This document shows, one piece after another, positions 24,516 through 46,344 of a stretch of 64,000 nt of DNA. Under the pieces are notes generated by a model. That model was not told where the DNA came from. It did not search any database and saw only the letters and a program-made list of their open reading frames with translations. Source of the DNA: Candidatus Levybacteria bacterium RIFCSPHIGHO2_01_FULL_40_16 (GTDB taxonomy: Bacteria > Patescibacteriota > Microgenomatia > Levybacterales > UBA12049). The position numbers and the translations under genes are program-made. Within the stretch, counting starts at the first letter, position 1. Every line of letters begins with the position of its first letter. Location of the stretch: assembly GCA_001783805.1 (NCBI GenBank), contig MFNS01000001.1, positions 64,649 to 128,648 on the forward strand. The letters run 5' to 3'.

Positions 24516-24534
24516 GGTAGTTAATTAAGCGCGG

Positions 24535-26274
24535 TTAATTTTTATTAAAAATATACTTTGTGCAGAAAGAGTTTATGGGCAAATTCTCGATATTGAAATC
24601 GAAAAACTTAAAATTGTCAGGATATTTAGATAAAGAATAAATACTGCATACGCGATCTTTATATATAGAATATATTGTTCCGGCATCGGATAGCTGAGAA
24701 ATTTCTACAGGCTTTTTCATAACCTGATAACTGCTAATTTCATCGCATTTCATGGTATTATTAATAATAATTGTATTGTCGGAACTTATTACATTTTTAT
24801 CAGGACATCCCTTAAGGAATCTTACGCCGTCTAACGCGTAAATATTGCTGTTGAAATTTTCGGTCACTATCTTGGCCGATTTTTGACTATAAGTATCTGC
24901 ATAAAGTACGTAACCCTTATATAGGGGTTCCGGTTCGGGCGAATAGACATACACAGATTTATCTTGTGCATTTACTAGGGCAATATACCCGGATAATATT
25001 CTTGTACTAAAGTTGGAGCCTTCAGAATTGTAGATAGGATATCTAAGGAAATAAATCACCAGAAAATTTGTTAATAAAGCTGTATATATTAAAAGGATAA
25101 ATCCGGCGAGAAATTTTCTGTAAAATGTTTTTTTTGGCAAAGACAGGGCATAAGATATGCCAACTCCGACTACTATTATAAAAAGCGGATAAATGAGCGT
25201 CCATTTATGAACAAATCTTTCTTGATCTGTGCTAATCGCAGCCGGAAAAGGGGCAATCAGTATGAGACCGATTATTAGCAACGCAACTTTTTTGTTTTTT
25301 TGAAAAAGATAGTAAAATCCCAACAATAGAAAAATAAGATCAACATAGTAAAAGTATCCATGATTCCAGAGGGAAACATACATATTGCTGTCTCCGGTTA
25401 TAAATTGGTATTGAGGAGAGAATGCGCCAAGGTATTTGTTTAAAAAATCTTTAGCAAATACAGTATATTTATTTATAATTAAGTTATTGATTGGAGAATT
25501 AATAGATAATTTTCTGTCAAGATTAACCTTTTCTGCAATGGATTGGCTCCATGGTGTATAAATTTCAGACAGTCTTTTTCCGGCGTTTCCCGAATTAAGC
25601 GATTGTAAAAAAAAGATAAACAAGAATAAGCAAGCGATAATTAGCGTTAAATAATACTTGGTATATTTTTTATTATTTAATATATGCCATGAAAAAAAAG
25701 CTGCAATAATTACAAATGGTAGAAAAATAATTTTTGTTCCTATGTAAGAATAGAATGCTAGAAATAAGGGTATAAAACTTAATAATATTCTCCAACTTTT
25801 ACTATAAAGCAAAATAGTCAAAGCCAACATGTAAAAGAAAACTGCAAGAGGAAAATCATAAGCAGTCCGGCCGAAAAAAATTCCCCATGGGCTAATAGCC
25901 GCAACTATCCCGACGATTAAAGCTTCCTTTTTACTAAAAAGTTTGTTTGTAATTAAATACAAGATTCCAACTAACAAAGTGCTAAATAAAGCGTATGGTA
26001 ATTTAGCGGTAAAAAGAGTTACCTTAAATAGACTAAGCAGTGGAGAAGCTATTAAGAAGGATAGTTCTGACATGGGATACGTATTATATATGGGTTGCAG
26101 TGACCATGGCTGCCAAGTGCCCAGAATATCCTTACCGGTCAGAGCGACCGATTTCGCGTTAATTATGAAAGTTAATTCATCGTTACTTAGAGCTAGGGGA
26201 ACTTCGTTTATAAAGATCGTCCTAAGTAAAAAAGCTATTATTAATATGAAAAATATTGCATCGATTTTCTTCAT
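24535..26274 (-). CDS. GT39/PMT-ArnT-family-like membrane glycosyltransferase
   Basis: 579 aa with the loop-1 motif LSNDELTF (DE) as in protein-O-mannosyltransferase/ArnT families. The C-terminal Cys-containing soluble domain is homologous to that of the divergent neighbour. Confidence 0.45.
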   Translation of the reverse strand: MKKIDAIFFILIIAFLLRTIFINEVPLALSNDELTFIINAKSVALTGKDILGTWQPWSLQPIYNTYPMSELSFLIASPLLSLFKVTLFTAKLPYALFSTLLVGILYLITNKLFSKKEALIVGIVAAISPWGIFFGRTAYDFPLAVFFYMLALTILLYSKSWRILLSFIPLFLAFYSYIGTKIIFLPFVIIAAFFSWHILNNKKYTKYYLTLIIACLFLFIFFLQSLNSGNAGKRLSEIYTPWSQSIAEKVNLDRKLSINSPINNLIINKYTVFAKDFLNKYLGAFSPQYQFITGDSNMYVSLWNHGYFYYVDLIFLLLGFYYLFQKNKKVALLIIGLILIAPFPAAISTDQERFVHKWTLIYPLFIIVVGVGISYALSLPKKTFYRKFLAGFILLIYTALLTNFLVIYFLRYPIYNSEGSNFSTRILSGYIALVNAQDKSVYVYSPEPEPLYKGYVLYADTYSQKSAKIVTENFNSNIYALDGVRFLKGCPDKNVISSDNTIIINNTMKCDEISSYQVMKKPVEISQLSDAGTIYSIYKDRVCSIYSLSKYPDNFKFFDFNIENLPINSFCTKYIFNKN

Positions 26275-26275
26275 T

Positions 26276-26304
26276 TTGTTAAATAATAATTCTTACTATA
26301 TAAT
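26276..26304 (+). promoter_or_regulatory. sigma70-like promoter TTGTTA-N17-TATAAT in the 60-bp divergent region between PMT-like paralogs
   Basis: -35 at 26276–26281 and -10 at 26299–26304. It drives the + gene starting at about 26335. Confidence 0.4.
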
Positions 26305-26334
26305 ATAGGTCAACTCTAATTGTACCACCATTAT

Positions 26335-28086
26335 ATGATGAATTTATTAAAAAGTAACCTCTTTTTAAGAAAGAACATCTTTTTTCTTTTGTTAATACTT
26401 ATTGCAATTTTGCCGCGTTTTATTTTCTTAAGCAACGTGCCAAATGCAATAAATCAAGATGAACTGCATTATGCTCTCGATGCAAAATCTTTTTTCTTAA
26501 CCGGCAAGGATGTTCTAGGACAAACTTCTCTGGTTGACGTACTGTTATTCAATTCTCCCAAAAGTGAACCTTTGCAAGCCGAGTTGCAATATTTTTTTGA
26601 GATTCCGGTTTTGGGACTTATGGGTTTTTCCATGACAAATTTGGTATTGCCCAATGTATTGCTAGGGATTTTAACTGTAGTCTTGATTTATCTCATAACC
26701 TTAAAGTTATTTGATAAAAATACTGCTCTTTTGGCTGGGTTAATTGCTGCAATAAATCCATGGTTGATTTTTTTAAGTAGAACCACCTATGAGGCAGGTC
26801 CGGCAACATTATTTTTTCTCTGCGTTTTTTACATGATGTTAATAACAAAAAGTTGGAAAATTTTACTGACAATCCCCTTCGCGCTTCTTGCTTTTTATTC
26901 TCATATTGCAACGAAACTTATTTTTCTGCCTTTTATGTCATTAAGTATTTTGTATGCTTTTTTGTCTGTTAATAAAAGAAAATATTTTAAACAGTATTTA
27001 TTTCTTTTTATGTTCTCGTGCGTTTTGACATTATTCTTCCTATTTCAACTTAAACAGGGAAAGTCTTCCAGGGGGACTGAAATTTTACTACCAAATAGCA
27101 TTGCAATAATACAGCGGGTTAATGAAGTCAGAAAAGCTACCATTCAGAACCCTTTTATCAATTTAGTCGAGAATAAATTCACAGTTTATGGATCTTTTCT
27201 TGTCAGGAATACATTTAATATTTTTTCTCCTACTTATCTTTTTGCTAATGCCGATTATTTTTTTATGCTGGGCGGACATGGCCTTTTCTACTATATAGAT
27301 TCATTTTTTTTAATTATTGGTTTAGGATGGGCGTTTTTGAAAAATAAGAAGTTATTTCTTACTTTTGTTTTAATTATATTTGTTGGAATTGTGCCCCAGA
27401 TAGTGCATAGCTCGAGTGTGAATGGAAATTTTAGTCATCACATAGCCCTGTCAATACCATTTATGATTATTTTTATGTCGCTTGGTATCAATGGTGTTTT
27501 CGGGAAGTTTAAAGATAAAAAACGTAGAGTTTTATTTATCGTTCTAATTGCTTTAATATATATCTTTTCATTCTTAAGGTTTTCTAATTTTTATTTTTTT
27601 AGGTACCCTCTTCAGGCAGGAACGTTTGGGGTGGAAAACCGTATTCTTTCTAAATACATAACCCTTTCTGAAGATGAAAAAAGACCAATAATTATTTATT
27701 CGGTTAACCCTATGCTTGCTTTTAAAGAATTTTTGTTCTATTCAAATCTCTACAACAAGAATACGGTAAAAACAATAAATGAATCGCTGAAAGACAAGAA
27801 GTTTATTTATAATAATATTTCATTTATTTCGTGTAGCAGGAGCATGCTTCCCGATTCGCAACCGGTATTAGTTATTGATGATGCGAATTGCGATAGATCA
27901 AGAAGTGAACATTCTATAAGTATTGCTCAATTGGAGGATAGCGGAAAAAAATATAATATCTATGGTGATAAAGCATGCAGTAGTTTTAATTTGCCTGGTT
28001 ATATTTCGAATTTGAAATTATCAGATTTTGATGTTGAAAATCTTCCGGCAAAAAAGTTTTGCGAAACATTCATAGTTTCTTATTAA
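26335..28086 (+). CDS. GT39/PMT-ArnT-family-like membrane glycosyltransferase (divergent paralog)
   Basis: INQDELHYALDAKS loop-1 DE motif, and the C-terminal domain (CDRSRSEH...FCETF) is conserved with the 24535 gene. The start was set at ATG 26335; the ORF track starts at TTG 26320. Confidence 0.45.
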   Translation: MMNLLKSNLFLRKNIFFLLLILIAILPRFIFLSNVPNAINQDELHYALDAKSFFLTGKDVLGQTSLVDVLLFNSPKSEPLQAELQYFFEIPVLGLMGFSMTNLVLPNVLLGILTVVLIYLITLKLFDKNTALLAGLIAAINPWLIFLSRTTYEAGPATLFFLCVFYMMLITKSWKILLTIPFALLAFYSHIATKLIFLPFMSLSILYAFLSVNKRKYFKQYLFLFMFSCVLTLFFLFQLKQGKSSRGTEILLPNSIAIIQRVNEVRKATIQNPFINLVENKFTVYGSFLVRNTFNIFSPTYLFANADYFFMLGGHGLFYYIDSFFLIIGLGWAFLKNKKLFLTFVLIIFVGIVPQIVHSSSVNGNFSHHIALSIPFMIIFMSLGINGVFGKFKDKKRRVLFIVLIALIYIFSFLRFSNFYFFRYPLQAGTFGVENRILSKYITLSEDEKRPIIIYSVNPMLAFKEFLFYSNLYNKNTVKTINESLKDKKFIYNNISFISCSRSMLPDSQPVLVIDDANCDRSRSEHSISIAQLEDSGKKYNIYGDKACSSFNLPGYISNLKLSDFDVENLPAKKFCETFIVSY

Positions 28087-29765
28087 TGAAAAAGAACTTA
28101 TCAAGCACCTTTAAAAACATCGCAGGTTATAGCGTTCGTAGTGGTCGTATTTCTCTCTGTTTGAATGAGGCACTTGGCAAAAAAAAGGTGCTGGATTTAT
28201 TACTTGTTATTATTACGTCAGCCATAGTTTTATTTTCCTTTGCGTTTGCTTTGAGATTAGTTCCTTCTCAAGTTACTTTTGGATACGATCAGGCAAGGGA
28301 CGCATACGAAGCTAATTCGATCTGGCAAAAACACGATCTCAAAATATTGGGGCCGTCTTCAGATGTCCCGGGGCTGAATCATGGTGTTCTCTGGTACTAT
28401 TTCTTAGCCTTGGCCTATGGTATATCGCAAGGCAATCCCGAAGGAGCAGCGATTTTTACATTGTTTTTGCTTTACCTATTTATTCCGGTAATGGGAATTA
28501 TAGCTTATAAAATTACCGAAAATTACAGAGATTCCTTAATGTCAGTTGCCTTATATTCTTTCGCTCCGCTTTCTGTTGCATTTTCCCATTGGTTATCAAA
28601 TCCAATGTTAGCTTTGTTGATTGCGCCTCCACTGTTGCTTTTAATCTGGATGTATCTTAAAAAACAAAACAAAATCCTTGCGCTTTTTATTGGCTTAAGC
28701 TATGGATTATTAATTCAATCCGACTTTGCTTTTTTAGTATTGCTGTTGACAATTCCCTTTTATATTTATTTCTTTAAATTAAAAGTAAAAATATCGGATG
28801 CATTGATGTTCTCTCTGGGTCTATTAATCGCTCTTTCTACATTTATCCTTTCTTATATTAAATTTCAAACTAATATTATCCAAATAATCTCGTCTTTTCT
28901 TGTTAACAATACAGGAGCAGGATTTTCAACCAGCTCTGCTCTTCTGTCTTTAGTCGATTGGACCGTAAATATATTTTCAATTACTTTTCTGCCTTTTCCA
29001 AAATTACTTGTCTTTGCACTGTTATTATTCTTAATTACCTATAAGCGCAAAGAAATATTTAATATAAGCAATAAACTAATAACTTTTTTATTAATTTGGT
29101 TAAGTGGCTCGCTATTTTTATTTATATTCAATCGCGGGAACATGTCTGCAACTTTTCTTTATAGCCCTTTTTTGTTTTCCGGAGCCTTATTAATAGGATT
29201 AATTTTGAACAACCTGATTAGAAAAGACTACGTACGTTACTCAATTCTCGCGGGCATAGTTTTGTTTCAAGCATTATTAATTAATTCCTGGACAAATAGA
29301 TACTATACTCCTCTTTCCATTCAGCTTGGAATTACTACCAAATTCGAAAAGGAGATAGTGAATTATACTTATAATCAGTCGGAAGGAAAAAATTTTATAA
29401 TTAATACAATAACGAATCCTTTATATATTAATACTACTTGGGCATATTTGTACGAATATTATGGTAAAAATAAATACGGTTATTTGCCATACTGGGGTGG
29501 TAGGAGTCAAGTGGGCTATCTGGGCAACCTATCGGAAAAAGCGCCTTCAAATGTAGCCTTGCGTTATCTTATTATTGAGCCTCAAGACGGAATACAAGAG
29601 ATATGGAAGGCAAGAATAATTTATGATGAAGACCGGATATCGGATATAATTGAGCGGAAAAAATTCGGAAATTACGAAGTTCAAAAAAGAATTATTAACT
29701 TGAATAAGGGTCCAATTCCGCTTCCCGATATTCTTCAAAAACGCGCGGATGTTCTTAAATTTTAA
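28086..29765 (+). CDS. PMT_2/ArnT-like GT-C glycosyltransferase candidate
   Basis: FGYDQARDAYEAN motif and multi-TM topology. The ATG at 28086 overlaps the upstream stop (TAATG). Confidence 0.4.
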   Translation: MKKNLSSTFKNIAGYSVRSGRISLCLNEALGKKKVLDLLLVIITSAIVLFSFAFALRLVPSQVTFGYDQARDAYEANSIWQKHDLKILGPSSDVPGLNHGVLWYYFLALAYGISQGNPEGAAIFTLFLLYLFIPVMGIIAYKITENYRDSLMSVALYSFAPLSVAFSHWLSNPMLALLIAPPLLLLIWMYLKKQNKILALFIGLSYGLLIQSDFAFLVLLLTIPFYIYFFKLKVKISDALMFSLGLLIALSTFILSYIKFQTNIIQIISSFLVNNTGAGFSTSSALLSLVDWTVNIFSITFLPFPKLLVFALLLFLITYKRKEIFNISNKLITFLLIWLSGSLFLFIFNRGNMSATFLYSPFLFSGALLIGLILNNLIRKDYVRYSILAGIVLFQALLINSWTNRYYTPLSIQLGITTKFEKEIVNYTYNQSEGKNFIINTITNPLYINTTWAYLYEYYGKNKYGYLPYWGGRSQVGYLGNLSEKAPSNVALRYLIIEPQDGIQEIWKARIIYDEDRISDIIERKKFGNYEVQKRIINLNKGPIPLPDILQKRADVLKF

Positions 29766-29811
29766 TTTCTTGAAATTTGGCTATGAAACGTAGAAATGAT
29801 AGAATTAGCTT

Positions 29812-30741
29812 ATGATTTCTGTAGTTGTGCCTGTTTACAACGAGCATGAAAGTCTTGAAGCTTTTTTTAAAGTTTTAATTCCCAATTTATCTAAATTAGA
29901 CAACGAACATGAAGCAATCTTTGTTGATGATGGGTCAACGGATAAAACTCTTGAGATTTTAAAGGACTTTGCGGCTAAAAATTCAAATGTCAAAGTTTTT
30001 TCTTTTAGGAAAAATAGAGGAAAAGCAGAAGCGTTAATAGTTGGTTTTCAAAAAGCAAAGGGAGATTTAATTGTTACTTTAGATGCGGATTTGCAGGACA
30101 GGCCGGAAGAGATCGCAAAACTAATAAAAAAACAAAAAGAAGGTTTTGACTTAGTTTGCGGTTGGAGAAAAAATAGAAAAGATGCTTTGAGGGCGAACCT
30201 TTCTTCCAAACTTTTTAATTCTATAGCATCTATTCTTTGGGGATTAAAATTACATGATTATAATTGTGGATTAAAACTCTACACTAAAGATGTTGCAAAA
30301 TCTCTTAATCTTTATGGAGGCATGCATAGGTTTATACCCCTTTTGGTTGCCGACCAAGGTTTTAGCGTCGCGGAAGTGGCAATCGAACATGTTGAAAGAA
30401 AATATGGAAAGTCAAAATATGGATTTTCCAAAATCTGGAAAGATTTGCCCGACATATTTACTATGCTTTTTTTGAGCAAATACAGTAAAAGACCATTTCA
30501 TTTTTTCGGAGCAGCAGGAAGCTTAATGGTTTTAATTGGCGCATTAATATTGGGATATCTTACTTACCTTAAGATCTTGGGCGAAGCCATTGGTCAACGG
30601 CCGCTTTTATTTTTGGGGATGCTATTTATAATTAGCGGATTTCAGCTGTTTTTTACGGGATTTTTAGCGGATCTAATTATTAATATTTCTTCAAAGAAGC
30701 AGAAAGATTTTACTTTTAAATATTCCAGCGAAGAGTTGTAA
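29812..30741 (+). CDS. polyprenyl-phosphate glycosyltransferase, GT2 (GtrB/ArnC/Ppm1/DPM1-like)
   Basis: VVVPVYNE...DDGSTD...DADLQD catalytic domain plus two C-terminal TM helices. This is the GtrB/DPM-synthase architecture. Confidence 0.65.
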   Translation: MISVVVPVYNEHESLEAFFKVLIPNLSKLDNEHEAIFVDDGSTDKTLEILKDFAAKNSNVKVFSFRKNRGKAEALIVGFQKAKGDLIVTLDADLQDRPEEIAKLIKKQKEGFDLVCGWRKNRKDALRANLSSKLFNSIASILWGLKLHDYNCGLKLYTKDVAKSLNLYGGMHRFIPLLVADQGFSVAEVAIEHVERKYGKSKYGFSKIWKDLPDIFTMLFLSKYSKRPFHFFGAAGSLMVLIGALILGYLTYLKILGEAIGQRPLLFLGMLFIISGFQLFFTGFLADLIINISSKKQKDFTFKYSSEEL

Positions 30742-30742
30742 A

Positions 30743-31342
30743 TTATTTTTCTCCCAAAATTAACGTCCAGGGAAAGGGAAAGATTATTTTTTTAACCTTT
30801 ATTCCATTTTGCTTAAGTATCTTTTTTAAACTCCAAGGGCTCCAATGGTTAACATGTCCGGGATCATTGCCGAATCTTGACAGATTTTTTCCTCTTAGAA
30901 AATTACTTAACATAAATAACGGTTCGTTTGGCACACTGATAACTAGGTATTTATTTGATACCCGCAACATTTCTTTTAGTGCTTTTGTGGGACTTTCTAA
31001 GTGCTCAAGAACTTCCGTGCAAATGATTAAATCGAAGGAATTGTCTTTGTAAGGAAGGTCATATACGCTTCCCTGTTTAATTGTTAAATTAGGAAAAAGT
31101 TTTTTACCAAAGTCTATAGATTCTTTTGAATATTCAACTCCTTCAATCTTTTTACCAAGACCATTTTCTCTTAGTTTGTTCATAGTAAAGCCTTCACCGC
31201 AGCCTGCATCAAGTATTGAATCGGCGTTTAATGGTTTTATTAAGGAAATCAGGGTGGAGAAAAAGTTCCCGATTAAAAACTTTTGAATTGGATTTTTGCT
31301 GGTATGTTTGACCAAATTGGTTGGAAGCTGTGTTTTTGTCAT
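30743..31342 (-). CDS. class I SAM-dependent methyltransferase
   Basis: ILDAGCGEGF motif I. 199 aa. Confidence 0.55.
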   Translation of the reverse strand: MTKTQLPTNLVKHTSKNPIQKFLIGNFFSTLISLIKPLNADSILDAGCGEGFTMNKLRENGLGKKIEGVEYSKESIDFGKKLFPNLTIKQGSVYDLPYKDNSFDLIICTEVLEHLESPTKALKEMLRVSNKYLVISVPNEPLFMLSNFLRGKNLSRFGNDPGHVNHWSPWSLKKILKQNGIKVKKIIFPFPWTLILGEK

Positions 31343-31407
31343 TTAACAGTATTTGTGTAATAATTCTAAATTATACGACATGAAGATACAAGATGTAGCG
31401 TTTTATA

Positions 31408-32277: not shown

Positions 32278-32310
32278 CTAAAATCCTCTCCTTTCTGCTA
32301 CAATTAAAAA

Positions 32311-32844: not shown

Positions 32845-32845
32845 T

Positions 32846-33988: not shown

Positions 33989-33989
33989 G

Positions 33990-34544: not shown

Positions 34545-34550
34545 TAACTA

Positions 34551-34578
34551 ATTGTTAAATTGCTATATTGTTAAATTG
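34551..34578 (+). promoter_or_regulatory. 12-nt direct repeat (ATTGTTAAATTG x2) with embedded extended -10 (TGcTATATT) upstream of the GT2 gene
   Basis: Copies at 34551–34562 and 34567–34578. Possible operator/promoter. Confidence 0.3.
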
Positions 34579-34583
34579 TTACG

Positions 34584-35474: not shown

Positions 35475-35478
35475 AATT

Positions 35479-38643: not shown

Positions 38644-38645
38644 AT

Positions 38646-40118: not shown

Positions 40119-40119
40119 G

Positions 40120-41328
40120 ATGAACATTCTTTTGGTTTCATCATATCTGCCTTATCCTCTTTTTTCCGGAGGACACATCCGCTTGTATAATTTGATAAAA
40201 GAATTAAGTCATAAACATAAAATAACTTTGGTTTGTGAAAAAAGAGATTATCAAGGTGATGCCGAAATCTCGGAGCTTAAGAAATTCTGCAAAAAAGTTA
40301 TTTCAGTTCCCCGTAAAAAGCAATGGTCTTTGAAAAATATTACAAAAACCGGATTGTCAGCTTTACCCTTTTTAATAATAGGTCACACTAGTAGCGAAAT
40401 GCGGAAAGAAATTCAAAGAGAACTCAATGAAAATCAATTTGATTTAATTCACGCGGAGACTTCTTATGTAATGCAGAATATTCCTGAAACCAAAATTCCT
40501 ATTATTTTGGCAGAGCACAATGTGGAATATTTGGTCTACAAGCGTTTTGCAGATAAAGCACCATTGTTGCTGAGGCCGCTTTTGTATATGGATGTTTTAA
40601 AGCTTAAGCGTTGGGAAGAAGCAGTATGGAAAAAGGCCACGAAATTGATAGCGGTTTCAAAAATTGAAAAAGAAATTATGAACAAAGTTAGAAAAGATGT
40701 TGTTGTTGTTTCAAATGGAGTGGACATTGAAAAATTTACAATTAACGATTTACAATTAACAAGAGATGGAAGAGAAAAAAGAATTTTGTTTATTGGGGAA
40801 TTTAAATGGGTGCAAAATAGAGACGCAATCGAATGGATAATTAAAGAAATTTGGCCAAAGCTTATGGCCGAATTTATCCCGCCTATAACAGGCGGTGGGA
40901 TTAAATTATGGGTAGTTGGGAGGAATATTCCTGATTCAATTAGAGAATTGACAAGCGATAAAAATATTATATTTGATGACAAAGCACCAAAAGAAACGGA
41001 AGAGATATTCAGAAAATCAAATCTTCTCCTGGCTCCAATTCAGGTTGGCGGAGGAACGAGTTTCAAAATTTTGGAAGCAATGGCGAGCGGCGTTCCAGTT
41101 GTCACAACAGATCTAGGTAATGCAATAGGAGCAAAAGAAGATTTAGAAATAGTTATTGCAAATGAGGCGCACGATTTTATTGTAAAGATTAAAGAACTAT
41201 TCGAGAATAAGAAATTTTATGAAACAATTTCTCAAAATGCCAGAAAGTTAATTGAAGAAAAATTTAACTGGCAAAAAATTGCAGGAGATCTAGATTCCGT
41301 TTATGAGCTAGTCGTGCCTTATGCTTGA
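40120..41328 (+). CDS. GT4-family glycosyltransferase
   Basis: C-domain GGTSFKILEAMASGVPVV (EX7E). Confidence 0.65.
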   Translation: MNILLVSSYLPYPLFSGGHIRLYNLIKELSHKHKITLVCEKRDYQGDAEISELKKFCKKVISVPRKKQWSLKNITKTGLSALPFLIIGHTSSEMRKEIQRELNENQFDLIHAETSYVMQNIPETKIPIILAEHNVEYLVYKRFADKAPLLLRPLLYMDVLKLKRWEEAVWKKATKLIAVSKIEKEIMNKVRKDVVVVSNGVDIEKFTINDLQLTRDGREKRILFIGEFKWVQNRDAIEWIIKEIWPKLMAEFIPPITGGGIKLWVVGRNIPDSIRELTSDKNIIFDDKAPKETEEIFRKSNLLLAPIQVGGGTSFKILEAMASGVPVVTTDLGNAIGAKEDLEIVIANEAHDFIVKIKELFENKKFYETISQNARKLIEEKFNWQKIAGDLDSVYELVVPYA

Positions 41329-42199
41329 CCTTTCTATTATTATTGTCAGTTACAACGCAAAGGAGTTCTTGAGGAAATGCATTGCGTCAATCGTGAAGAA
41401 CATAAAGAACGTTTCATACGAAGTGATTGTTGTTGATAATAATTCAACAGACAGTTCTTCCGAAATGGTCAAAAAAGAGTTTCCCCAAATAAAGTTAATT
41501 GCGAATAAGAAAAATTTTGGGTTTTCAAAGGCGAATAATCAGGGAATTAAAATCTCAGAGGAAAGCAAATATATTTTATTTTTAAATCCGGATACGATTG
41601 TTAACGAACAGTCAGTTGAGGGAATGGTTAAATTTATGGATAGTCATTCAGATGCGGGGGCATCCACTTGCAAACTCGTAATGCCGAATGGAAGAATCGA
41701 TGATGCATCCCATCGCGGTTTTCCAACTCCTTGGAATTCTTTCTGCCATTTCTCAGGAATGTCCCGAATATTTCCAAAATCACAGATTTTCGCAGGATAT
41801 AACTTGGGATGGATGAACTTTGAGAAAACCCACGAAATAGATGTGCTGGCTGGAGCATTCATGTTGGTTAGAAGAGTTGCGGGTAAGGAAGCGAAATGGT
41901 GGGATGAAGATTATTTTTTCTACGGGGAAGATATAGATTTTTGTTATCAGCTAAAAGCAAAAGGCTGGAAAATTTATTATGTCCCGACCTTTTCTATAAT
42001 TCATTACAAAGGCGTGAGCGGCGGGATAAAATCTGTTTCTAAAGAAATCACCACAGCGAGTAAGGAAACAAAAGAAATGGTAACCAAATGGCGTTTTAAG
42101 GCAATGAGAATTTTTTACAATAAACATTACAGGCAAAAATATCCTTGGATTATTAATTTATTAGTAAATGTTGGAATTTCAATCAGAGAAAAAATATGA
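41321..42199 (+). CDS. GT2-family glycosyltransferase
   Basis: LSIIIVSYNAKEFL...VVDNNSTDSS. Confidence 0.6.
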   Translation: MLDLSIIIVSYNAKEFLRKCIASIVKNIKNVSYEVIVVDNNSTDSSSEMVKKEFPQIKLIANKKNFGFSKANNQGIKISEESKYILFLNPDTIVNEQSVEGMVKFMDSHSDAGASTCKLVMPNGRIDDASHRGFPTPWNSFCHFSGMSRIFPKSQIFAGYNLGWMNFEKTHEIDVLAGAFMLVRRVAGKEAKWWDEDYFFYGEDIDFCYQLKAKGWKIYYVPTFSIIHYKGVSGGIKSVSKEITTASKETKEMVTKWRFKAMRIFYNKHYRQKYPWIINLLVNVGISIREKI

Positions 42200-43338
42200 A
42201 AATAGGAATTGATACGAGGCTTTGGGGTGAAACTGGAGTTGGGAGATATATTCGCAATTTAGTGTCTGAACTTTCTAAAATAGACTTTAAGAATAGTTAT
42301 GTCTTGTTCGCCTTAAACAAAAACGAAAAAAACATTAAATCCGCAATTCGTAATTCTCAATTCGTAATTCGATTAACTGATATTAAGTGGCATACGCTTG
42401 AAGAACAATTAAAATTTCCTGCAATTTTGAATAAAGAAAATCTCGATCTAATACATTTTCCTTATTTTTCCGTTCCCGCTCTTTATAACAAACCATTTGT
42501 TTTTACGATTCACGATCTTATTATCGATCATTTTCCAACCGGACAGGCATCTGCTTTGCCATTTCCCATCTATAACCTTAAAAGGTTAGCATATAATCTT
42601 GTACTTAGTTACGCAGCAAAAAAAGCAAAAAAAATCATTACTGTTTCAAATGCGACGAAAGATGAAATTATAGATCATTTAAAAGTTAATCCCGAAAAAG
42701 TTGCAGTGACCTATGAGGGGGTGGATGATAGAATATCAAATATCAAATATCAAAAATCAAAAATTGATAGTGAATACTTTCTTTGTGTTGGGAATGCGTA
42801 TCCGCATAAAAATCTTGAGAGATTATTGGAAGCGTTTAAAATATTGGATAACGACACGAAACTTGTTTTGGTTGGAAAGGAAGATTATTTTTACAAAAGA
42901 TTAAGGAGTAAGGTGGCGGGAATGAGACTTTCCGACAAAACAATTCTCTTACAAAATGTAGCTGATGAAGAATTGTCAAGTTTGTACCAAAATGCAAAAG
43001 CTTTAATCTTGCCGTCTTTAATGGAAGGGTTTGGTCTGCCGGCTTTGGAGGCGATGGCGAATAAATGTTTGGTTTTGGCATCAGATATACCTTCATTGAG
43101 AGAAATATGTGGTAATGCCGCTTTGTATTTTAACCCATTAAGCATTGATGAATTGACAAAAAAGCTCAATATGGTTACCTCCCATACTACAGGGTATGGA
43201 AGGTTAGAAGAAATAAGAAAAAGAGGAATTGAGAGAGTCAAGCTTTTTTCCTGGCGCAAAATGGCAAGGAAGACATTGAAAATATATGAAAGTAGTTCTT
43301 CGGCAAGTCGAAGATACCCAGAGGGGCACTCAGAATAA
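42196..43338 (+). CDS. GT4-family glycosyltransferase
   Basis: EGFGLPALEAMANKCLVL. Contains two heptamer arrays (AATTCGT x4 and AATATCA x4–5). Confidence 0.65.
   Translation: MKIGIDTRLWGETGVGRYIRNLVSELSKIDFKNSYVLFALNKNEKNIKSAIRNSQFVIRLTDIKWHTLEEQLKFPAILNKENLDLIHFPYFSVPALYNKPFVFTIHDLIIDHFPTGQASALPFPIYNLKRLAYNLVLSYAAKKAKKIITVSNATKDEIIDHLKVNPEKVAVTYEGVDDRISNIKYQKSKIDSEYFLCVGNAYPHKNLERLLEAFKILDNDTKLVLVGKEDYFYKRLRSKVAGMRLSDKTILLQNVADEELSSLYQNAKALILPSLMEGFGLPALEAMANKCLVLASDIPSLREICGNAALYFNPLSIDELTKKLNMVTSHTTGYGRLEEIRKRGIERVKLFSWRKMARKTLKIYESSSSASRRYPEGHSE
42345..42372 (+). repeat. heptamer array AATTCGT-like x4 in GT4 N-domain
   Basis: Units are aattcgt aattctc aattcgt aattcga. Confidence 0.8.
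42732..42766 (+). repeat. heptamer array AATATCA x3 + AAAATCA + AAAATTG in GT4 interdomain linker
   Basis: Encodes ISNIKYQKSKI. Confidence 0.75.
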
Positions 43339-43365
43339 ACTTACTTATTATTGCAAGTTCATCCT

Positions 43366-44535
43366 ATGAAAGTGGCATTAGTGTACGACCGATTGAATAA
43401 ATGGGGAGGGGCAGAAAGAGTAATGCTTGCTTTGCATAAGCTATTTCCTCTAGCTCCGCTTTACAGCTCAGTTTACGATAAAAAGAAAGCTCCTTGGGCC
43501 CTTCGTTTTAACTCAGGGCAAGCAAAAATTAAAACTTCTTTCCTTCAAAACTTTCCATTCGCCATGCGCCATGAGCTATATGCTGGCCTGATGCCTTTGG
43601 CGTTTGAGAGCTTTAATTTTGACGAGTTTGATTTAGTAATTTCCATAACTTCGGAAGCGGCAAAAGGAATTATTACTAAGCCCCAAACAAAACATATTTG
43701 TTATTGTTTAACGCCGACCCGTTATCTTTGGAGTGGATACAAAGACTATTTTAATAATCCGGTTCTTCGTTTTCTTTCATTTCCGGTTGTTTGGTATTTG
43801 AAGTTTTGGGATAAAATTGCAGCGCAAAGGCCGGACGCGTACATTGCGATTTCAAAAGAGGTTCAGATGAGGATTAAGAAGTATTATGGCAGAGAATCAA
43901 CCGTGGTGTACCCGCCAATCGAAATCTCAAATCTCAAATCTCAAATCTCAAATAAATCTCAAAATGCCAAATACAAAATACAAAATATCCCTTATTTCTT
44001 AATTGTTTCCCGTCTAGTTCCGTATAAGAAAATAGATCTTGCAATAAGAACTTTTAATAAATTAAAACTTCCCTTAAAAATAATTGGAACAGGCTCACAG
44101 ATGCAGGAATTAAAATCAATGGCGGAGCCGACAATTGAGCTTCTGGGTAACTTGACGGATAAAGAGCTGGTAAGGTATTATAGTGAGTGTTGCGCTTTGG
44201 TTTTTCCCGGTCCTGAAGATTTCGGTTTAACAATCTTAGAGGCGCAGGTTTTTGGCAAGCCGGTTATCGCTTTTAGAGGTGGAGGGGCTCTGGAAACAAT
44301 CATTGAAAAAAAGACAGGCGTTTTTTTTGAAGAACAAACAATCGAGAGCCTAACCAAAACAATAAAGCAATTTAACAAAATGAAATTTGATCCAAGAGAT
44401 TGCATCGAGCAAGCAAACAAATTTAATTTTAAAGTGTTTGAGGAGCGATTTATGCAAGAGATCCTTCGGCTGATGCCTCGTGCCGCCGGCATAGCCTTTG
44501 GCGACGCACGGCAGGATGACATTAATAAATTATGA
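43366..44535 (+). CDS. GT4-family glycosyltransferase
   Basis: MKVALVYDRL... and the C-domain EDFGLTILEAQVFGKPVI. A long AAATCTC/AAATACA heptamer array lies in the interdomain linker. The start was set at ATG 43366; the track starts at TTG 43351. Confidence 0.6.
   Translation: MKVALVYDRLNKWGGAERVMLALHKLFPLAPLYSSVYDKKKAPWALRFNSGQAKIKTSFLQNFPFAMRHELYAGLMPLAFESFNFDEFDLVISITSEAAKGIITKPQTKHICYCLTPTRYLWSGYKDYFNNPVLRFLSFPVVWYLKFWDKIAAQRPDAYIAISKEVQMRIKKYYGRESTVVYPPIEISNLKSQISNKSQNAKYKIQNIPYFLIVSRLVPYKKIDLAIRTFNKLKLPLKIIGTGSQMQELKSMAEPTIELLGNLTDKELVRYYSECCALVFPGPEDFGLTILEAQVFGKPVIAFRGGGALETIIEKKTGVFFEEQTIESLTKTIKQFNKMKFDPRDCIEQANKFNFKVFEERFMQEILRLMPRAAGIAFGDARQDDINKL
43922..43989 (+). repeat. heptamer array AAATCTC x4 followed by AAATACA x2–3 in GT4 interdomain linker
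   Basis: 68 nt of AAAT-N-N-C-type units. Encodes EISNLKSQISNKSQNAKYKIQNI. Confidence 0.8.
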
Positions 44536-45614
44536 AGATTGTTGTTTTTGCAGGCGGAGTCGGAACAAGGCTTTGGCCGCTTTCCCGGAAAAATAGTCCC
44601 AAACAATTTGAAAAAATATTAGGTGACAAATCTACTTTGCAACTCGCAGTTGATAGGCTCAATCCGGATTTCGCCTTCGAAGATATTTATGTTGCAACAG
44701 GAGAAAAATATGAAAAAATTGTCCGAGTTCAGCTTCCCAAAATTCCAGCTAAAAACTTTATTTTTGAACCTGCGGTAAGGGATGTCGGTCCTGCGGTTGG
44801 TATGGCAATGTCAATCATAGGAAAAGAGTACCCGAATTCTCCGGTTGCAATTTTGTGGAGTGATCATTTTGTCAAAAAAGAAAGAAGATTCCGTGAGGTT
44901 TTGCATTTTGCAGAAGGGCTTGTTAAAAAAAATAATAACGCACTTATACTTATTGGGCAAAGGGCGAGATTTGCGAATCAGAATTTGGGATGGATAGAAT
45001 TTGGCCGTGAAATAGAGGAGATTAGGGGAACAAAGGTTTTCGAATTTAAGAAGCTAATTTATAGACCAACACTTGAGCAAGCAGAACAATTCCTGGAAAC
45101 CGGTAATTTTGCCTGGAATCCGGGTTACTTTGTTACAACTCCCGGATTCATCTTATCCCAATTTAAGACATTTGCTCCTCAATTATATGCTGGACTGAAG
45201 CAAATACGAGATGCCGTGGGTACTGCCAGACTTGACAGAACTGTTAACGCCGTATATCCGACGCTTGAGAAAATAAGCTTTGACAATGCGATTTTGGAAA
45301 AGATACATCCAAAACATGTTGCTGTTATTGCAGCAGATTTAGGCTGGAGCGATGTGGGCGCATGGGAAGCATTAAAAGAAGCATTGGAAAAAACGTCGGA
45401 TGAAAATGTTACCAAGGGAAAAGTTATAATAAATGATTCTTCCGATAATCTCGTTTTTAACTATACGGATCAACTAGTGGTGGGAATTGATCTTGAAAAG
45501 ATGCTGGTTATAAGTACGGATGATGTGCTTTTGGTTTGCAGTAAAAATTCCGTTCCTAAAATAAAAAAACTGGTTGAAAAACTGGAAAATACTCCGCATG
45601 AACATCTTACGTAA
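44532..45614 (+). CDS. manC: mannose-1-phosphate guanylyltransferase (no PMI domain)
   Basis: MKIVVFAGGVGTRLWPLSRKNSPKQF matches the ManC/CpsB N-terminus. 360 aa. Confidence 0.65.
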   Translation: MKIVVFAGGVGTRLWPLSRKNSPKQFEKILGDKSTLQLAVDRLNPDFAFEDIYVATGEKYEKIVRVQLPKIPAKNFIFEPAVRDVGPAVGMAMSIIGKEYPNSPVAILWSDHFVKKERRFREVLHFAEGLVKKNNNALILIGQRARFANQNLGWIEFGREIEEIRGTKVFEFKKLIYRPTLEQAEQFLETGNFAWNPGYFVTTPGFILSQFKTFAPQLYAGLKQIRDAVGTARLDRTVNAVYPTLEKISFDNAILEKIHPKHVAVIAADLGWSDVGAWEALKEALEKTSDENVTKGKVIINDSSDNLVFNYTDQLVVGIDLEKMLVISTDDVLLVCSKNSVPKIKKLVEKLENTPHEHLT

Positions 45615-45617
45615 ACT

Positions 45618-46292: not shown

Positions 46293-46303
46293 TCTATCTG
46301 CAG

Positions 46304-46344
46304 TTGACCCCGCTAAGCGGGGTTGACAGGATTGAGCTTTTTTG
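46304..46344 (+). terminator. GC-rich stem-loop (gaccccgc-taa-gcggggtt) followed by a T-run; possible terminator/attenuator between the phosphoglycosyl transferase and DUF4012 genes
   Basis: An 8-bp stem (one mismatch) with a 3-nt loop at 46306–46324. The T6 run starts about 12 nt downstream, so this is non-canonical. It overlaps a TTGACA hexamer. Confidence 0.3.

Follow-up and report, generated by a model that had tools for sequence, protein, structure and literature searches.

We conclude with moderate confidence that the region analysed here encodes the stepwise assembly, on a polyprenyl carrier, of a major envelope glycopolymer in Levybacteria and Microgenomates. Its product is most likely a lipid-linked heteropolysaccharide of Wzy type, in the wall or at the cell surface, that GT-C enzymes decorate outside the cytoplasm; to our knowledge, no Microgenomates bacterium has a known polysaccharide product. 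The window, a 64,000-nucleotide stretch of the genome of a Candidatus Levybacteria (CPR/Patescibacteria), an ultra-small groundwater bacterium, holds one glycan supercluster that fills positions 1–48331 and adjoins the dcw (cell-division/peptidoglycan) genes. An earlier note had read this locus as a protein-O-mannosylation-like toolkit for surface-protein glycosylation. Spelled out as PMT-type O-mannosylation, ManC would supply GDP-mannose, the GT2 enzyme 29812 would form polyprenyl-phosphate-mannose, an EamA transporter would flip it and GT-C enzymes would put single mannoses on Ser/Thr, as Ppm1 and Pmt do in Actinobacteria. The gene inventory of the note is correct, every cited ORF being in place and of the superfamily named, and its reading as a whole is partly supported.

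A lineage-wide core operon beside a strain-specific region

We compared the locus with 80 related loci, one per species, from Levy-, Gottesman-, Roizman- and Woesebacteria, counting the presence of a gene only among loci long enough to hold it, so that denominators vary per gene. The sugar-polymer region is real, and the comparison divides it into a lineage-wide core operon and a strain-specific decoration region. The core operon (32311–48331, plus strand) comprises 13 colinear, co-directional and tightly packed genes (intergenic gaps −8 to +65 nt), each kept in 84–100% of long-enough loci, in the order split GT4 (two genes), acetyltransferase, GT2, Wzy_C-like/GT-C fusion, GT-C, GT4, GT2, GT4, GT4, ManC, priming phosphoglycosyltransferase and DUF4012. 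The variable, low-GC region (5039–31342) carries extra GT-C paralogs, a GtrB/ArnC-type synthase, methyltransferases and the EamA gene; GC in its upstream part (5039–24515) is 0.31–0.33, below that of the conserved backbone operon. In other species the variable region holds GT-C families (PMT_2, GT-C_AftD, YfhO, DUF6541), sugar-nucleotide enzymes and methyltransferases.

The first core gene encodes a stand-alone GT4 N-terminal domain of 177 aa (32311–32844; Glyco_transf_4, E = 5.4e-6), the partner of the next GT4 (32846–33988; Glycos_transf_1, E = 3.1e-41; 68/68 loci). Its counterpart is a separate ORF of 173–208 aa in 61 of 64 loci, sometimes parted from the 32846 counterpart by inserted genes. 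There follow a hexapeptide-repeat acyl/acetyltransferase (33990–34544; Hexapep, E = 4e-13; 74/74 loci) and a GT2 enzyme with one C-terminal TM helix (34584–35474; Glycos_transf_2, E = 8.1e-25; 70/76 loci), which among proteins of solved structure lies closest to TarS-type GT2 enzymes; it is a generic GT2 and not Dol-P-Man-synthase-like. Downstream of the fusion and the GT-C gene lie a GT4 (40120–41328; 69/69 loci), a GT2 (41321–42199; 58/63) and two further GT4 genes (42196–43338, 58/60; 43351–44535, 55/58). The identification of the next gene as ManC (mannose-1-phosphate guanylyltransferase; 44532–45614; 51/56 loci) stands: the protein has NTP_transferase and ManC beta-helix domains, matches TIGR01479 across the guanylyltransferase part (E = 1.8e-69) and is without an isomerase domain. 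It is followed by a priming polyprenyl-phosphate hexose-1-phosphate transferase of WbaP/PglC type (45618–46292; 224 aa, one TM helix; Bac_transf, E = 3.3e-61; TIGR03025, E = 1.4e-75; 48/54 loci) and, last, by a DUF4012 protein of 657 aa with one N-terminal TM helix and a large outer part (46358–48331; E = 4.4e-19; 42/50 loci), a family enriched in CPR bacteria and Gram-positives (PMC6744442).

This gene content bears directly on the mannosylation reading. An operon with a priming phosphoglycosyltransferase and seven cytoplasmic GT4/GT2 genes marks the synthesis of an oligo- or polysaccharide on a lipid carrier. It does not match PMT-type transfer of single mannoses, which leaves the priming enzyme, the seven transferases, the acetyltransferase and the Wzy_C-like module unaccounted for. 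The position of ManC between four GT4/GT2 genes and the priming enzyme points to the use of GDP-mannose in the cytoplasm. The priming enzyme, the seven transferase genes, the acetyltransferase and the DUF4012 gene had been overlooked in the earlier note, and they change the picture.

The core GT-C fusion and its neighbour

The largest core gene (35479–38643) encodes a fusion of 1054 aa with ~19 TM helices, assigned from its Wzy_C score, predicted fold and orthologues, of which we found more than 120 full-length clusters; 182 species genomes have the gene. The N-terminal module (residues 1 to ~545) is Wzy_C-like (WaaL/Wzy-type), with a beta-rich outer loop of ~150 aa and residues R235, R418 and D448. 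The GT-C module that follows it (residues ~546–1054), also overlooked before, has an invariant D580–D581 loop motif and ends in a small alpha/beta domain. A Wzy_C-type protein can be a polymerase, a ligase or a protein O-oligosaccharyltransferase, roles that sequence does not tell apart. A search at the sequence level matched the fusion to none of the solved structures; Foldseek matches of its AF2 model (pLDDT 69) include STT3, Pmt4, ArnT, DPY19, PglB, AftB and WaaL. The earlier classification as a PglL/WaaL-type Wzy_C protein is supported by the fold match to solved WaaL (7tpg; TM 0.52 on the target) and by relatives, six of nine scanned scoring 32–47 bits. Against it, the fusion itself scores 26.7 bits, under the 31.7 cutoff, the PglL-specific PglL_A motif (PF15864) was not detected in the module even at E up to 10, and D448 stands where the ligases have their catalytic His, as does an Asp in 259 of 260 family sequences. 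That His is essential in WaaL and PglL (PMC3643930).

Gene fusions link the Wzy_C-like module to GT-C enzymes repeatedly: among the top 150 representatives it is joined to a type A GT-C in 38 and to a GT-C of the 38646 type in 2. In P0369 the GT-C that is fused to the module is 40% identical to 38646 (E = 2e-122). The 38646 gene itself (38646–40118; 71/71 loci) encodes a core GT-C glycosyltransferase of 490 aa that exceeds the Pfam cutoffs for both PMT_2 (52.8 bits) and PMT (36.4 bits). Its predicted structure (AF2, pLDDT 79) points elsewhere: Foldseek ranks ArnT (E = 3e-7), STT3, ALG12 (TM 0.62), PglB, ALG9 and AftA before any PMT, the first of which appears at rank 29 with E ~1e-2. The DE loop motif that had been ascribed to this enzyme and to two accessory paralogs is present after TM1 in the paralogs 24535 (D32–E33) and 26320 (D47–E48) but absent from 38646, whose outer loop 1 reads D30...D38.

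Strain-variable GT-C enzymes and the lipid-sugar synthase

The two paralogs are 35% identical over 565 aa. Paralog A (24535–26274, minus strand; 579 aa, ~10 TM helices) scores 21.4 bits against PMT_2, below the 26.1 cutoff, and paralog B (26320–28086, plus strand; 588 aa, ~10 TM helices; the ATG at 26335 is codon 6 of this ORF) scores 27.9 bits, just above it. The D-E pair of paralog B is conserved at ≥90% in its own family, which has just 103 database relatives. The paralogs' family profile weakly matches AglB and ArnT but no PMT. The label 'PMT-like' holds for Pfam PMT_2 membership of 38646 and 26320 but not for fold and profile: the GT-C enzymes of the locus are not specifically PMT-like and lie nearest to ArnT, ALG12, STT3 and AftD.

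Directly 5′ of the GtrB-like gene, 28059–29765 (plus strand) encodes a putative GT-C partner, a membrane protein with 9 TM helices that belongs to none of the known families (no Pfam or NCBIfam match) and whose N-terminal part is similar to 22911. The GtrB-like gene (29812–30741, plus strand; Glycos_transf_2, E = 1.5e-34) encodes a polyprenyl-phosphate glycosyltransferase of GtrB/ArnC/CsbB type, a GT2 domain with two C-terminal TM helices (238–256, 265–283). The proposed polyprenyl-phosphate-sugar synthase architecture was right, and the protein is not a processive, cellulose- or chitin-synthase-like GT2; it is colinear over residues 2–292 with solved ArnC (9hwj; E = 2.7e-43) and GtrB (5ekp; E = 1e-32). 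Its match to Dol-P-Man synthase (5mlz; E = 5.6e-20) is far weaker. An accessory SAM-dependent methyltransferase (30743–31342, minus strand; Methyltransf_11, E = 1.8e-20; 15/54 loci) separates it from the 10-TM EamA/DMT transporter (31408–32277, plus strand; EamA, E = 1.1e-35), named correctly before and only speculatively a lipid-sugar flippase. Locus L072 carries one half-size EamA protein.

The genes once grouped as one coherent toolkit are not co-conserved. ManC, the fusion and 38646 belong to the conserved operon, but EamA occurs in just 6 of 60 related loci and a GtrB-like synthase in 29 of 51, and the 24535/26320 paralogs have homologues in 0 of 80 within ±10 kb of the operon. About half of the related loci have no nearby GtrB-like gene that could make the donor for the two core GT-C modules.

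Further upstream (5039–24515, plus strand) lie the multi-TM genes 5039, 7413, 14627, 16855, 20357 and 22911, the paralogs 19142/21931, three GT2 genes, methyltransferases and an epimerase. By profile, 5039 and 14627 are AftD-like GT-C proteins (cell-wall arabinosyltransferase AftD, 6w98; E = 7e-6) without a match to any PMT, and 20357 weakly matches AftB (E = 0.012). Besides 28059, up to nine multi-TM genes of this stretch have no family match; all of these had been passed over. The supercluster holds at least six supported GT-C or GT-C-like units (38646, the fusion C-domain, 24535, 26320, 5039 and 14627), with several more suspected. Nucleotide-sugar modification genes (544–4951, minus strand) encode a DegT aminotransferase, a cupin isomerase/epimerase, two SDR dehydratase/reductases and a sugar-1-P nucleotidyltransferase.

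Readings of the product and comparison with known systems

In the assembly line that we propose, 45618 would prime polyprenyl phosphate, and the seven transferase genes (32311 and 32846 as a split GT4, 34584, 40120, 41321, 42196 and 43351) and acetyltransferase 33990 would build a mannose-containing repeat unit with GDP-mannose supplied through ManC. A protein encoded outside the region would flip the lipid-linked unit. Outside the membrane, the Wzy_C-like module may polymerise it or transfer it en bloc, the fused GT-C module and 38646 may use polyprenyl-phosphate-sugar donors to attach further sugars, or may join the chain to its acceptor, and DUF4012 may assist. The low-GC upstream region would provide strain-specific decoration, with 29812 paired with GT-C-like 28059, 26320, 24535, 5039, 14627 and others, joined by the methyltransferases and amino-deoxy-sugar genes. 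Our analysis shows the family and fold assignments, the conservation of the operon, the fusion links and the division into core and variable parts, whereas we infer in which order the steps run, whether a polymer or a single unit is transferred, which sugars are used and what the final acceptor is. The polymer reading is supported by the joint occurrence of priming enzyme, transferases, acetyltransferase and ManC in one operon, the 13-gene conservation, the fold and Rosetta-stone links of the fusion, the GT-C-rich variable region with its AftD match, the GtrB-like/multi-TM pairing, the priming/DUF4012 parallel, the dcw neighbourhood and the base composition. Against it stand the sub-cutoff score and ambiguity of the Wzy_C-like module, the missing sequence match of the fusion to solved structures, the lack of a known polysaccharide from Microgenomates, the loci without a GtrB-like gene, and the near-absence of export and ligation genes. 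The window encodes neither a flippase of the Wzx/MOP type nor an ABC exporter, a Wzz-type regulator of chain length or an LCP ligase; within ±10 kb in the 80 related loci Polysacc_synt matched just 1 of 74 membrane proteins, and LCP, Wzz and ABC were absent from the 25 commonest families of flanking soluble proteins.

This absence of chain-length regulators and LCP ligases would fit a short glycan moved en bloc to a protein of the cell surface, such as a pilin, a lipoprotein or an S-layer protein, a tentative alternative that we consider rather unlikely. The operon would then make a lipid-linked oligosaccharide, the Wzy_C-like module would be an O-oligosaccharyltransferase like WsaB/WsfB or PglL/PilO, and the GT-C enzymes would trim or extend the glycan outside. 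Wzy_C proteins are the predicted O-oligosaccharyltransferases of Geobacillus and Paenibacillus S-layer glycosylation, whose clusters also hold a WbaP-type priming enzyme, glycosyltransferases and methyltransferases (PMC2943079), and streptococcal GtrB and GT-C systems are reported to glycosylate Ser/Thr-rich protein regions (PMC12041528). The fusion GT-C half and 38646 resemble the protein-acting STT3, PglB, PMT and DPY19, but also ArnT and ALG enzymes, whose targets are not proteins. Besides the missing PglL_A motif and catalytic His, the fusion is without the TPR module that WsfB and PglL have. PglL and S-layer systems usually adjoin their target gene; the window encodes no candidate acceptor (pilin, S-layer protein or Ser/Thr-rich ORF), and none recurs among the flanks of the 80 loci. 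The lack of a Ser/Thr-rich ORF in the window also tells against PMT-type O-mannosylation.

A membrane-anchored lipoglycan (LM/LAM-like or a lipoteichoic-acid substitute) is improbable. Here the Wzy_C-like module would ligate the glycan onto a membrane glycolipid, as WaaL joins O-antigen to lipid A-core, and the GT-C enzymes would elongate and branch it from polyprenyl-phosphate sugars, like PimE, Mpt, Emb and Aft enzymes of Actinobacteria. The WaaL-like fold, the AftD and AftB matches, the conserved ManC and a scheme that needs no LCP ligase are consistent with this, and the unusually many GT-C genes recall how mycobacteria make LM/LAM and arabinogalactan. Against it, Asp takes the place of the ligase His, the AftD and AftB matches are weak and indicate a common fold, not a common substrate, and no lipid-anchor gene (PimA/PimB-like or diacylglycerol glycosyltransferase) could be singled out. 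PMT-type O-mannosylation is very improbable on the grounds given above; in its favour are the Pfam PMT and PMT_2 scores of 38646, the D-E pair of the two paralogs, the architecture of the GT2 enzyme 29812 and the presence of ManC. Of the earlier reading, an extracytoplasmic, polyprenol-dependent glycosylation machinery is supported.

The verdict 'not classical O-antigen' was right because the organism is a CPR bacterium whose envelope is of Gram-positive type (PMC6744442). The proposed lipid-linked glycopolymer compares best with the secondary cell-wall polysaccharides or capsules of Gram-positives that are decorated outside the cytoplasm. In other loci a multi-TM protein of 520–710 aa is nearly always encoded directly 5′ of the GtrB-like gene, as 28059 is here, a pairing that resembles the multi-component systems decorating LTA, WTA, rhamnan and the B. 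anthracis SCWP, for which decoration ahead of the Wzy polymerisation step has been proposed (PMC8035078). A Bifidobacterium longum capsule/EPS cluster likewise pairs a priming transferase with DUF4012 (PMC5412050), and a conserved backbone operon that adjoins a hypervariable region of lower GC recalls loci for wall polysaccharides, for example enterococcal EPA (PMC7188991).

The conserved core operon and its variable flank

Pfam and NCBIfam scans of the ORFs identified positions 1-48331 of the window as a single very large glycan-synthesis cluster; RecO and a class II tRNA synthetase come next on its 3′ side, and after them dcw/peptidoglycan genes (MraZ, MraW, an FtsI-type PBP, two Mur ligases, MurA and GlmS). 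Levybacteria are a lineage of the Microgenomates, part of the Candidate Phyla Radiation (CPR; Patescibacteria), and the protein of 38646-40118 is identical to one of 'Candidatus Levybacteria bacterium RIFCSPLOWO2_01_FULL_39...', from groundwater metagenomes. CPR cells are ultra-small and have a Gram-positive-type envelope (PMC6744442). Every ORF cited in an earlier note, which had read 24535-45614 as a protein O-mannosylation-like toolkit for glycosylating surface proteins, was present where that note had placed it. Beyond these we found a small priming transferase of the WbaP/PglC type (45618; Bac_transf, E = 3.3e-61), four full GT4 glycosyltransferases and a stand-alone GT4 N-domain gene (32311), two more GT2 enzymes, a hexapeptide acetyltransferase and a DUF4012 protein. 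A priming phosphoglycosyltransferase and cytoplasmic glycosyltransferases occur together in this one locus, the combination by which Wzx/Wzy pathways are recognized.

The 1054-aa protein encoded at 35479-38643, a fusion of a Wzy_C-like module with a GT-C module, was found in 182 species-representative genomes. We took 80 of these loci with flanks of up to 10 kb and separated core from accessory genes by tblastn of each window protein against them. Orthologues of the fusion form more than 120 full-length clusters at about 57% identity. The core operon (32311-48331) comprises 13 colinear genes, each present in 84-100% of the loci long enough to hold them, in the order GT4 N-domain, GT4, acetyltransferase, GT2, fusion, GT-C (38646), GT4, GT2, GT4, GT4, ManC, priming transferase and DUF4012, with intergenic gaps of −8 to +65 nt in the window. 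The first two genes, 32311 and 32846, are not a broken pseudogene, being separate ORFs in 61 of 64 loci. Their junction (32311-33988) is an insertion hot spot, with extra genes in eight related loci (L012, L016, L018, L027, L043, L056, L066 and L068) that include opposite-strand genes for proteins of about 510-540 aa with 8-10 TM segments. A promoter and terminator scan of 29000-48900 returned counts equal to chance. RecO (48331-48882) has only 183 aa, consisting of the N-terminal domain and part of the C-terminal domain; it overlaps the DUF4012 stop codon by 1 nt and so may share a transcript with the glycan operon. Of the 150 soluble flank proteins scanned, 3 also contain RecO_N. Many related records (L006, L013, L014 and L016 among them) bear the title 'uncultured Gammaproteobacteria bacterium' (TPA), and one that of 'Candidatus Pacearchaeota archaeon'; since all carry a Levybacteria-type operon at 50-59% identity, these titles are probably placeholders or the result of mis-binning.

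The upstream flank differs from species to species yet keeps the same kind of content, namely large multi-TM proteins and sugar enzymes. The large multi-TM proteins, where classifiable, match PMT_2, GT-C_AftD, YfhO or DUF6541, and the 150 soluble flank proteins include 26 epimerase/dehydratases and 11 DegT aminotransferases, as well as methyltransferases. The genes of the window's own flank accompany the operon to very different degrees: the GtrB-like GT2 (29812) in 29 of 51 loci, the methyltransferase (30743) in 15 of 54 and the EamA transporter (31408) in 6 of 60. Neither the PMT_2 paralogs 24535 and 26320 nor the membrane protein 28059 was detected by tblastn in any of the 80 related loci with flanks of up to 10 kb. 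GC content rises in steps, from 0.31-0.33 in the variable region (14001-30000) through 0.36-0.38 in the core (32001-46000) to 0.38-0.43 in the housekeeping genes (46001-64000), a gradient consistent with exchange or fast turnover of decoration genes.

The Wzy_C-like/GT-C fusion

The product of 35479 has about 19 TM segments and had been described as a PglL/WaaL-type Wzy_C protein. With 26.7 bits it falls below the Pfam Wzy_C (PF04932) cutoff of 31.7, whereas six family relatives (P0285, P0337, P0390, P0311, P0369 and P0306) score 32-47 bits, which makes assignment to the superfamily appear sound. The PglL-specific motif and the catalytic His were not found. PglL_A (PF15864), which tells PglL from WaaL, gave no match with the whole fusion at E ≤ 0.01 or with residues 1-450 at E ≤ 10. 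A predicted structure (pLDDT 69, pTM 0.72) compared by Foldseek aligned with WaaL 7tpg at a TM-score of 0.52 on the target (E = 0.5), and its top matches were the GT-C enzymes STT3, Pmt4, ArnT, DPY19, PglB and AftB. Residues 1 to about 545 form the Wzy_C/WaaL-like module, with an insert rich in beta structure at about 283-411; the GT-C module spans residues from about 546 to 1054, with an invariant D580-D581 after its first TM segment and a small C-terminal alpha/beta domain. Hydropathy suggests that both presumed active sites face outwards. An assembly or frameshift artefact is ruled out by the single ORF in 80 species loci and by the more than 120 protein clusters. The GT-C half is unlikely to be an OST, given its small C-terminal domain and the lack of any 'WWDYG'-type motif on visual inspection of the translation.

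In E. coli WaaL, R215, R288 and H338 are essential, and they are conserved in PglL (PMC3643930). R235 (in 'TVSR') and R418 are invariant in the fusion family. D448 fills the H(X10)G position, in 'VDNNYLRILGETG' (V-D448-N-N-Y-L-R-I-L-G-E-T-G459); of 260 family sequences, 259 have Asp at this ligase-His position and none has His, and in seven relatives the Asp maps to about position 130 of the 149 of the Wzy_C model. Alignment of the Wzy_C-like profile with E. coli WaaL by hhalign gave nothing meaningful, so that the equivalence of His and Asp rests on motif spacing and Pfam match coordinates. The change may reveal a variant of the WaaL/Wzy reaction mechanism, and together with the fusion it offers specific targets for mutagenesis and for reconstitution in a heterologous host.

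At E ≤ 1e-3, an exhaustive search with residues 1-545 returned 990 clusters. Of the 150 best representatives, 87 have the Wzy_C-like module alone, 38 have it joined to a GT-C of the window type, 23 to a membrane region and a metallophosphoesterase-like domain and 2 to a GT-C of the 38646 type. One of the last, P0369, aligns with 38646 over the full length at 40% identity (E = 2e-122). Such alternative fusions serve as Rosetta-stone evidence for joint action of the Wzy_C-like enzyme and the operon's two GT-C enzymes. The metallophosphoesterase label is based on a Pfam Metallophos match in P0310. Fusions of this calcineurin-like type (P0310, P0323, P0325, P0327, P0337 and P0346) have 969-1266 aa, come from other lineages and keep the Asp motif; their domain architecture suggests that the Wzy_C-like family may sometimes be coupled to a phosphoester-cleaving step.

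GT-C enzymes, sugar donors and flanking membrane proteins

The earlier note had described several GT-C enzymes here as PMT-like. At least six GT-C modules are supported in the window by the folds and profiles of 38646, the fusion and the paralog families, none of them specifically PMT-like. The core GT-C enzyme 38646 (38646-40118, 490 aa) exceeds the cutoffs of both PMT and PMT_2, but its PMT (PF02366) score of 36.4 bits (cutoff 22.7) covers only profile positions 85-195 of 245. An AlphaFold2 model of 38646 (pLDDT 79), compared with the PDB by Foldseek, has a GT-C fold with 25 GT-C matches at E ≤ 1e-3; ArnT came first (3e-7), followed by STT3, ALG12 (best TM-score, 0.62), PglB, ALG9, AftA and DPY19. 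PMTs appeared only from rank 29 (Pmt4, E = 9.5e-3), which speaks against calling 38646 PMT-like. No match to PDB sequences was obtained with 38646, the fusion, their family profiles or DUF4012, by single-sequence or profile search. The DE loop motif after TM1 that had been ascribed to these enzymes is present in the accessory paralogs 24535 (D32-E33) and 26320 (D47-E48, at least 90% conserved) and missing from 38646, in which the first outer loop reads A-D30-W-H...D38-T instead. The counterpart in the fusion is D580-D581, and these acidic residues of the first outer loop, like D30 and D38 of 38646, are invariant. The two accessory paralogs are 35% identical and match PMT_2 (cutoff 26.1) but not PMT, 26320 just passing with 27.9 bits and 24535 just failing with 21.4. 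Their family profile matched archaeal AglB weakly (8e-4, over 41 residues) and ArnT at 0.07, and did not match PMT. The annotation 'glycosyltransferase family 39 / PMT' in CPR genomes should not, then, be taken as a sign of protein O-mannosylation.

The multi-TM proteins of 28059 and of up to nine upstream genes, including 5039, 7413, 14627, 16855, 19142, 20357, 21931 and 22911, have no Pfam match. They and the accessory GT-C genes include the paralog pairs 5039/14627, 19142/21931, 24535/26320 and 22911/28059. The 5039/14627 family profile matched mycobacterial AftD colinearly (E = 7e-6), and 20357 matched the AftB model weakly but colinearly (E = 0.012). With the profiles of 38646 and the fusion, hhalign gave 7413, 16855, 19142, 20357, 21931, 22911 and 28059 probabilities of at most 21%, and hence no classification. 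The paralogs at 19142-20236 and 21931-22983 are 39% identical and without a family match; each has one N-terminal TM segment, an outer domain of about 170 aa and five C-terminal TM segments, and homologs adjoin AftD-like genes in about nine related loci. As called from the first TTG, 21931-22983 overlaps 22911-24515 by 73 nt and 26320-28086 overlaps 28059-29765 by 28 nt; translation probably begins at ATG or TTG codons farther downstream. On the reverse strand, 1811-2263 encodes a 150-aa cupin that matches dTDP-sugar isomerase/FdtA families; a weak Polysacc_synt_C match (E = 3.9e-5) is probably spurious, as the protein lacks TM segments.

ManC at 44532 is confirmed as a short form (TIGR01479, E = 1.8e-69 over model positions 3-348; NTP_transferase, E = 1.4e-25; ManC_GMP_beta-helix, 30.2 bits) without the isomerase domain. 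The GT2 enzyme 29812, proposed as a polyprenyl-phosphate-hexose synthase, is indeed a polyprenyl-phosphate glycosyltransferase and not a processive enzyme of the cellulose- or chitin-synthase kind. Its residues 2-292 are colinear with ArnC 9hwj (E = 2.7e-43) and GtrB 5ekp (E = 1e-32), the match to Dol-P-Man synthase reaching only E = 5.6e-20; it scores 174.9 bits with the NCBIfam ArnC model, under the equivalog cutoff of 529, and hydropathy places two C-terminal TM helices at 238-256 and 265-283. Another GT2 with one C-terminal TM segment, 34584, was considered as a Dol-P-Man-synthase-like feeder of the core GT-Cs and set aside, its nearest solved relatives being TarS-type GT2 enzymes. The proposed transporter at 31408 likewise proved to be a 10-TM protein with a clear EamA domain (E = 1.1e-35). 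It is a speculative candidate for an ArnE/F-like flippase of the lipid-bound sugar and the sole transporter near 29812, and it accompanies the operon far less often than the GtrB-like GT2 does; its nearest NCBIfam relatives are metabolite exporters (YedA).

GtrA-family proteins were not matched among the scanned ORFs of the locus and its flanks (in the window, those of about 120 aa or more) or among 26 small membrane proteins of related loci. Small 3-4-TM proteins beside GT-C genes in the related loci, considered as GtrA flippases, had no Pfam support. In the related loci the gene directly 5′ of the GtrB-like gene almost always encodes a multi-TM protein of 520-710 aa. A family of 105-130-aa, 3-4-TM proteins with a 'PY[LFI]N' motif (L005:3397-3771, L006:3082-3459, L008:3690-4031 and 14 further loci) is encoded between membrane proteins of about 1000-1130 and 520-710 aa, just 5′ of the GtrB-like gene. 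This family matches nothing in Pfam, is distinct from GtrA and does not occur in the window.

A proposed pathway and its relation to known systems

We favour a wall or surface polysaccharide as the product because the priming transferase, glycosyltransferases, acetyltransferase, ManC, Wzy_C-type enzyme, GT-Cs and GtrB-type pairing are combined here, and hold with middling confidence that the operon specifies a polyprenol-linked heteropolysaccharide pathway of the Wzy type. Such a pathway would comprise the priming transferase, seven cytoplasmic glycosyltransferases, the acetyltransferase, ManC and a Wzy_C-type enzyme at the outer face, with the GT-C enzymes, the GtrB-type synthase and its GT-C partners, and the variable flank. 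The fusion would couple polymerization or en bloc transfer to GT-C glycosylation, and the low-GC flank would be the source of strain-specific decoration, including amino-deoxy and O-methylated sugars made via 544-4951, 9013, 11689 and 30743. A Wzx (MOP) flippase, ABC exporter, Wzz or LCP ligase was not found in the window; the 74 flanking membrane proteins of the 80 loci yielded one Polysacc_synt match, and the 25 most frequent families in the 150 soluble flank proteins did not include LytR_cpsA_psr, Wzz or ABC. With these missing nearby, the locus does not account for flipping, chain-length control or final attachment.

Their absence would fit en bloc O-glycosylation of an S-layer protein or pilin, with the Wzy_C-like module acting like WsaB/WsfB or PglL (PMC2943079). 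We consider this unlikely, since the PglL_A motif, the His and a TPR module are missing, as is any adjacent or Ser/Thr-rich target: no pilin or S-layer gene was found in the window or recurs in the 80 loci, and no ORF in any of the six frames of the window is Ser/Thr-rich (at least 40% S+T in 40 aa). A membrane-anchored lipoglycan resembling LM/LAM would account both for the abundance of GT-C genes and for the missing LCP, and seems to us quite improbable. PMT-type direct O-mannosylation, the main function proposed in the earlier note, is the least supported and very improbable, because its presumed components are not conserved together, PMT is not the nearest relative of the GT-C enzymes, the synthase belongs to the ArnC/GtrB type and most of the operon would have no role.

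The components of the favoured polysaccharide pathway all come from known superfamilies and clusters for glycans are common, which makes this a known kind. Four features nevertheless appear to be new: the 13-gene operon across Microgenomates, the missing accessory genes, the obligatory Wzy_C-type/GT-C fusion with alternative partners and the family-wide Asp at the ligase-His position. The literature searched contained nothing specific on them or on a described CPR glycan pathway. Tentatively, and as a proposition more doubtful than the pathway itself, we suggest that Microgenomates (Levy-, Gottesman-, Roizman- and Woesebacteria) share an undescribed envelope-glycan machine, in which an Asp-type Wzy_C-related transferase with a beta-rich loop insert would be coupled to GT-Cs, by fusion to the window-type GT-C (type A), to a 38646-type GT-C or, in other lineages, to a metallophosphoesterase-like module. 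It would make the main surface glycopolymer without Wzx, Wzz or LCP, in ultra-small and probably host-attached bacteria, the surface being diversified by the hypervariable GT-C/GtrB region. CPR bacteria make up a large part of bacterial diversity and are presumed to live attached to hosts; to our knowledge, next to nothing about their cell surface has been established experimentally. An operon that keeps its gene order in at least four candidate phyla-level lineages and lies beside peptidoglycan and division genes is a strong candidate for making the main surface glycan, on which host attachment, phage recognition and envelope integrity could depend.

With Ppm1/Pmt and the eukaryotic PMTs (GT39) the region shares the GT-C fold, Pfam PMT/PMT_2 matches, the DE pair of 24535/26320, and GDP-mannose supply alongside a polyprenyl-phosphate-sugar synthase. 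It differs in that solved PMTs are not the nearest structures, 38646 lacks the DE pair, MIR domains are absent, the synthase is not of the Ppm1/DPM1 type, and the genes are embedded in an operon with a priming enzyme, glycosyltransferases and a Wzy_C protein. Features are likewise shared with the three-component glycosylation systems GtrA/GtrB/GtrC, ArnC/ArnE-F/ArnT and CsbB/GtcA/YfhO: 29812 is ArnC/GtrB-like over its full length with two C-terminal TM helices and lies directly 3′ of multi-TM, GT-C-like genes, and 38646 is nearest to ArnT by Foldseek E-value. However, no GtrA-family protein was detected, a 10-TM EamA protein present in 10% of loci stands in place of a half-size ArnE/F pair, and lipid A cannot be the acceptor here. 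The mycobacterial cell-wall arabinofuranosyltransferases AftD, AftB and Emb resemble the flank in their many clustered paralogs and DD or D-x loop motif after TM1, and 5039/14627 are colinear with AftD over the membrane and first soluble regions; at 743-764 aa these are shorter than AftD (about 1400), of very low identity to it, and decaprenyl-phospho-arabinose genes were not seen.

The fusion family is like WaaL and PglL/PilO/WsaB in its multi-TM architecture with a large outer loop, in relatives that pass the Wzy_C cutoff, in the fold match to 7tpg, and in the 'T-x-S-R' motif (R235 for E. coli WaaL R215) and second loop arginine (R418). In contrast to them, the fusion itself is below the Pfam cutoff, has Asp for His (E. 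coli H338, Neisseria H349) throughout the family, lacks PglL_A, and carries a beta-rich loop insert of about 150 aa and an attached GT-C; Levybacteria have no lipid A-core, and no adjacent protein target was found.

Among described systems, the nearest analogues of the favoured pathway are Gram-positive. It is proposed for the B. anthracis SCWP that GtsABC decorates lipid-linked units extracellularly and that Wzy polymerization follows (PMC8035078). The GtrB-like gene and its multi-TM neighbour in the related loci show the GT-A/GT-C pairing known from transmembrane glycosylation systems with several components (PMC8035078). For their wall polysaccharides, Lactococcus and Enterococcus have a conserved locus for the backbone together with a variable one for decoration (PMC8035078, PMC7188991). 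DUF4012, a family enriched in CPR and Gram-positives (PMC6744442), adjoins the priming transferase in a Bifidobacterium longum capsule/EPS cluster (PMC5412050). The window locus shares with the SCWP, Lactococcus rhamnan/pellicle and enterococcal EPA systems polyprenyl-phosphate priming, several cytoplasmic glycosyltransferases, a Wzy-type enzyme, a membrane GT-A of the GtrB/CsbB type with a GT-C acting outside, and a backbone locus beside variable decoration. Unlike them, it has no Wzx, GtrA/GtcA flippase, Wzz or LCP ligase in or near it; its Wzy_C-like enzyme is covalently fused to a GT-C, with a second GT-C next to it, and bears Asp for the ligase-type His, and DUF4012 is a fixed member of the operon, in a CPR host with a genome of about 0.8 Mb.
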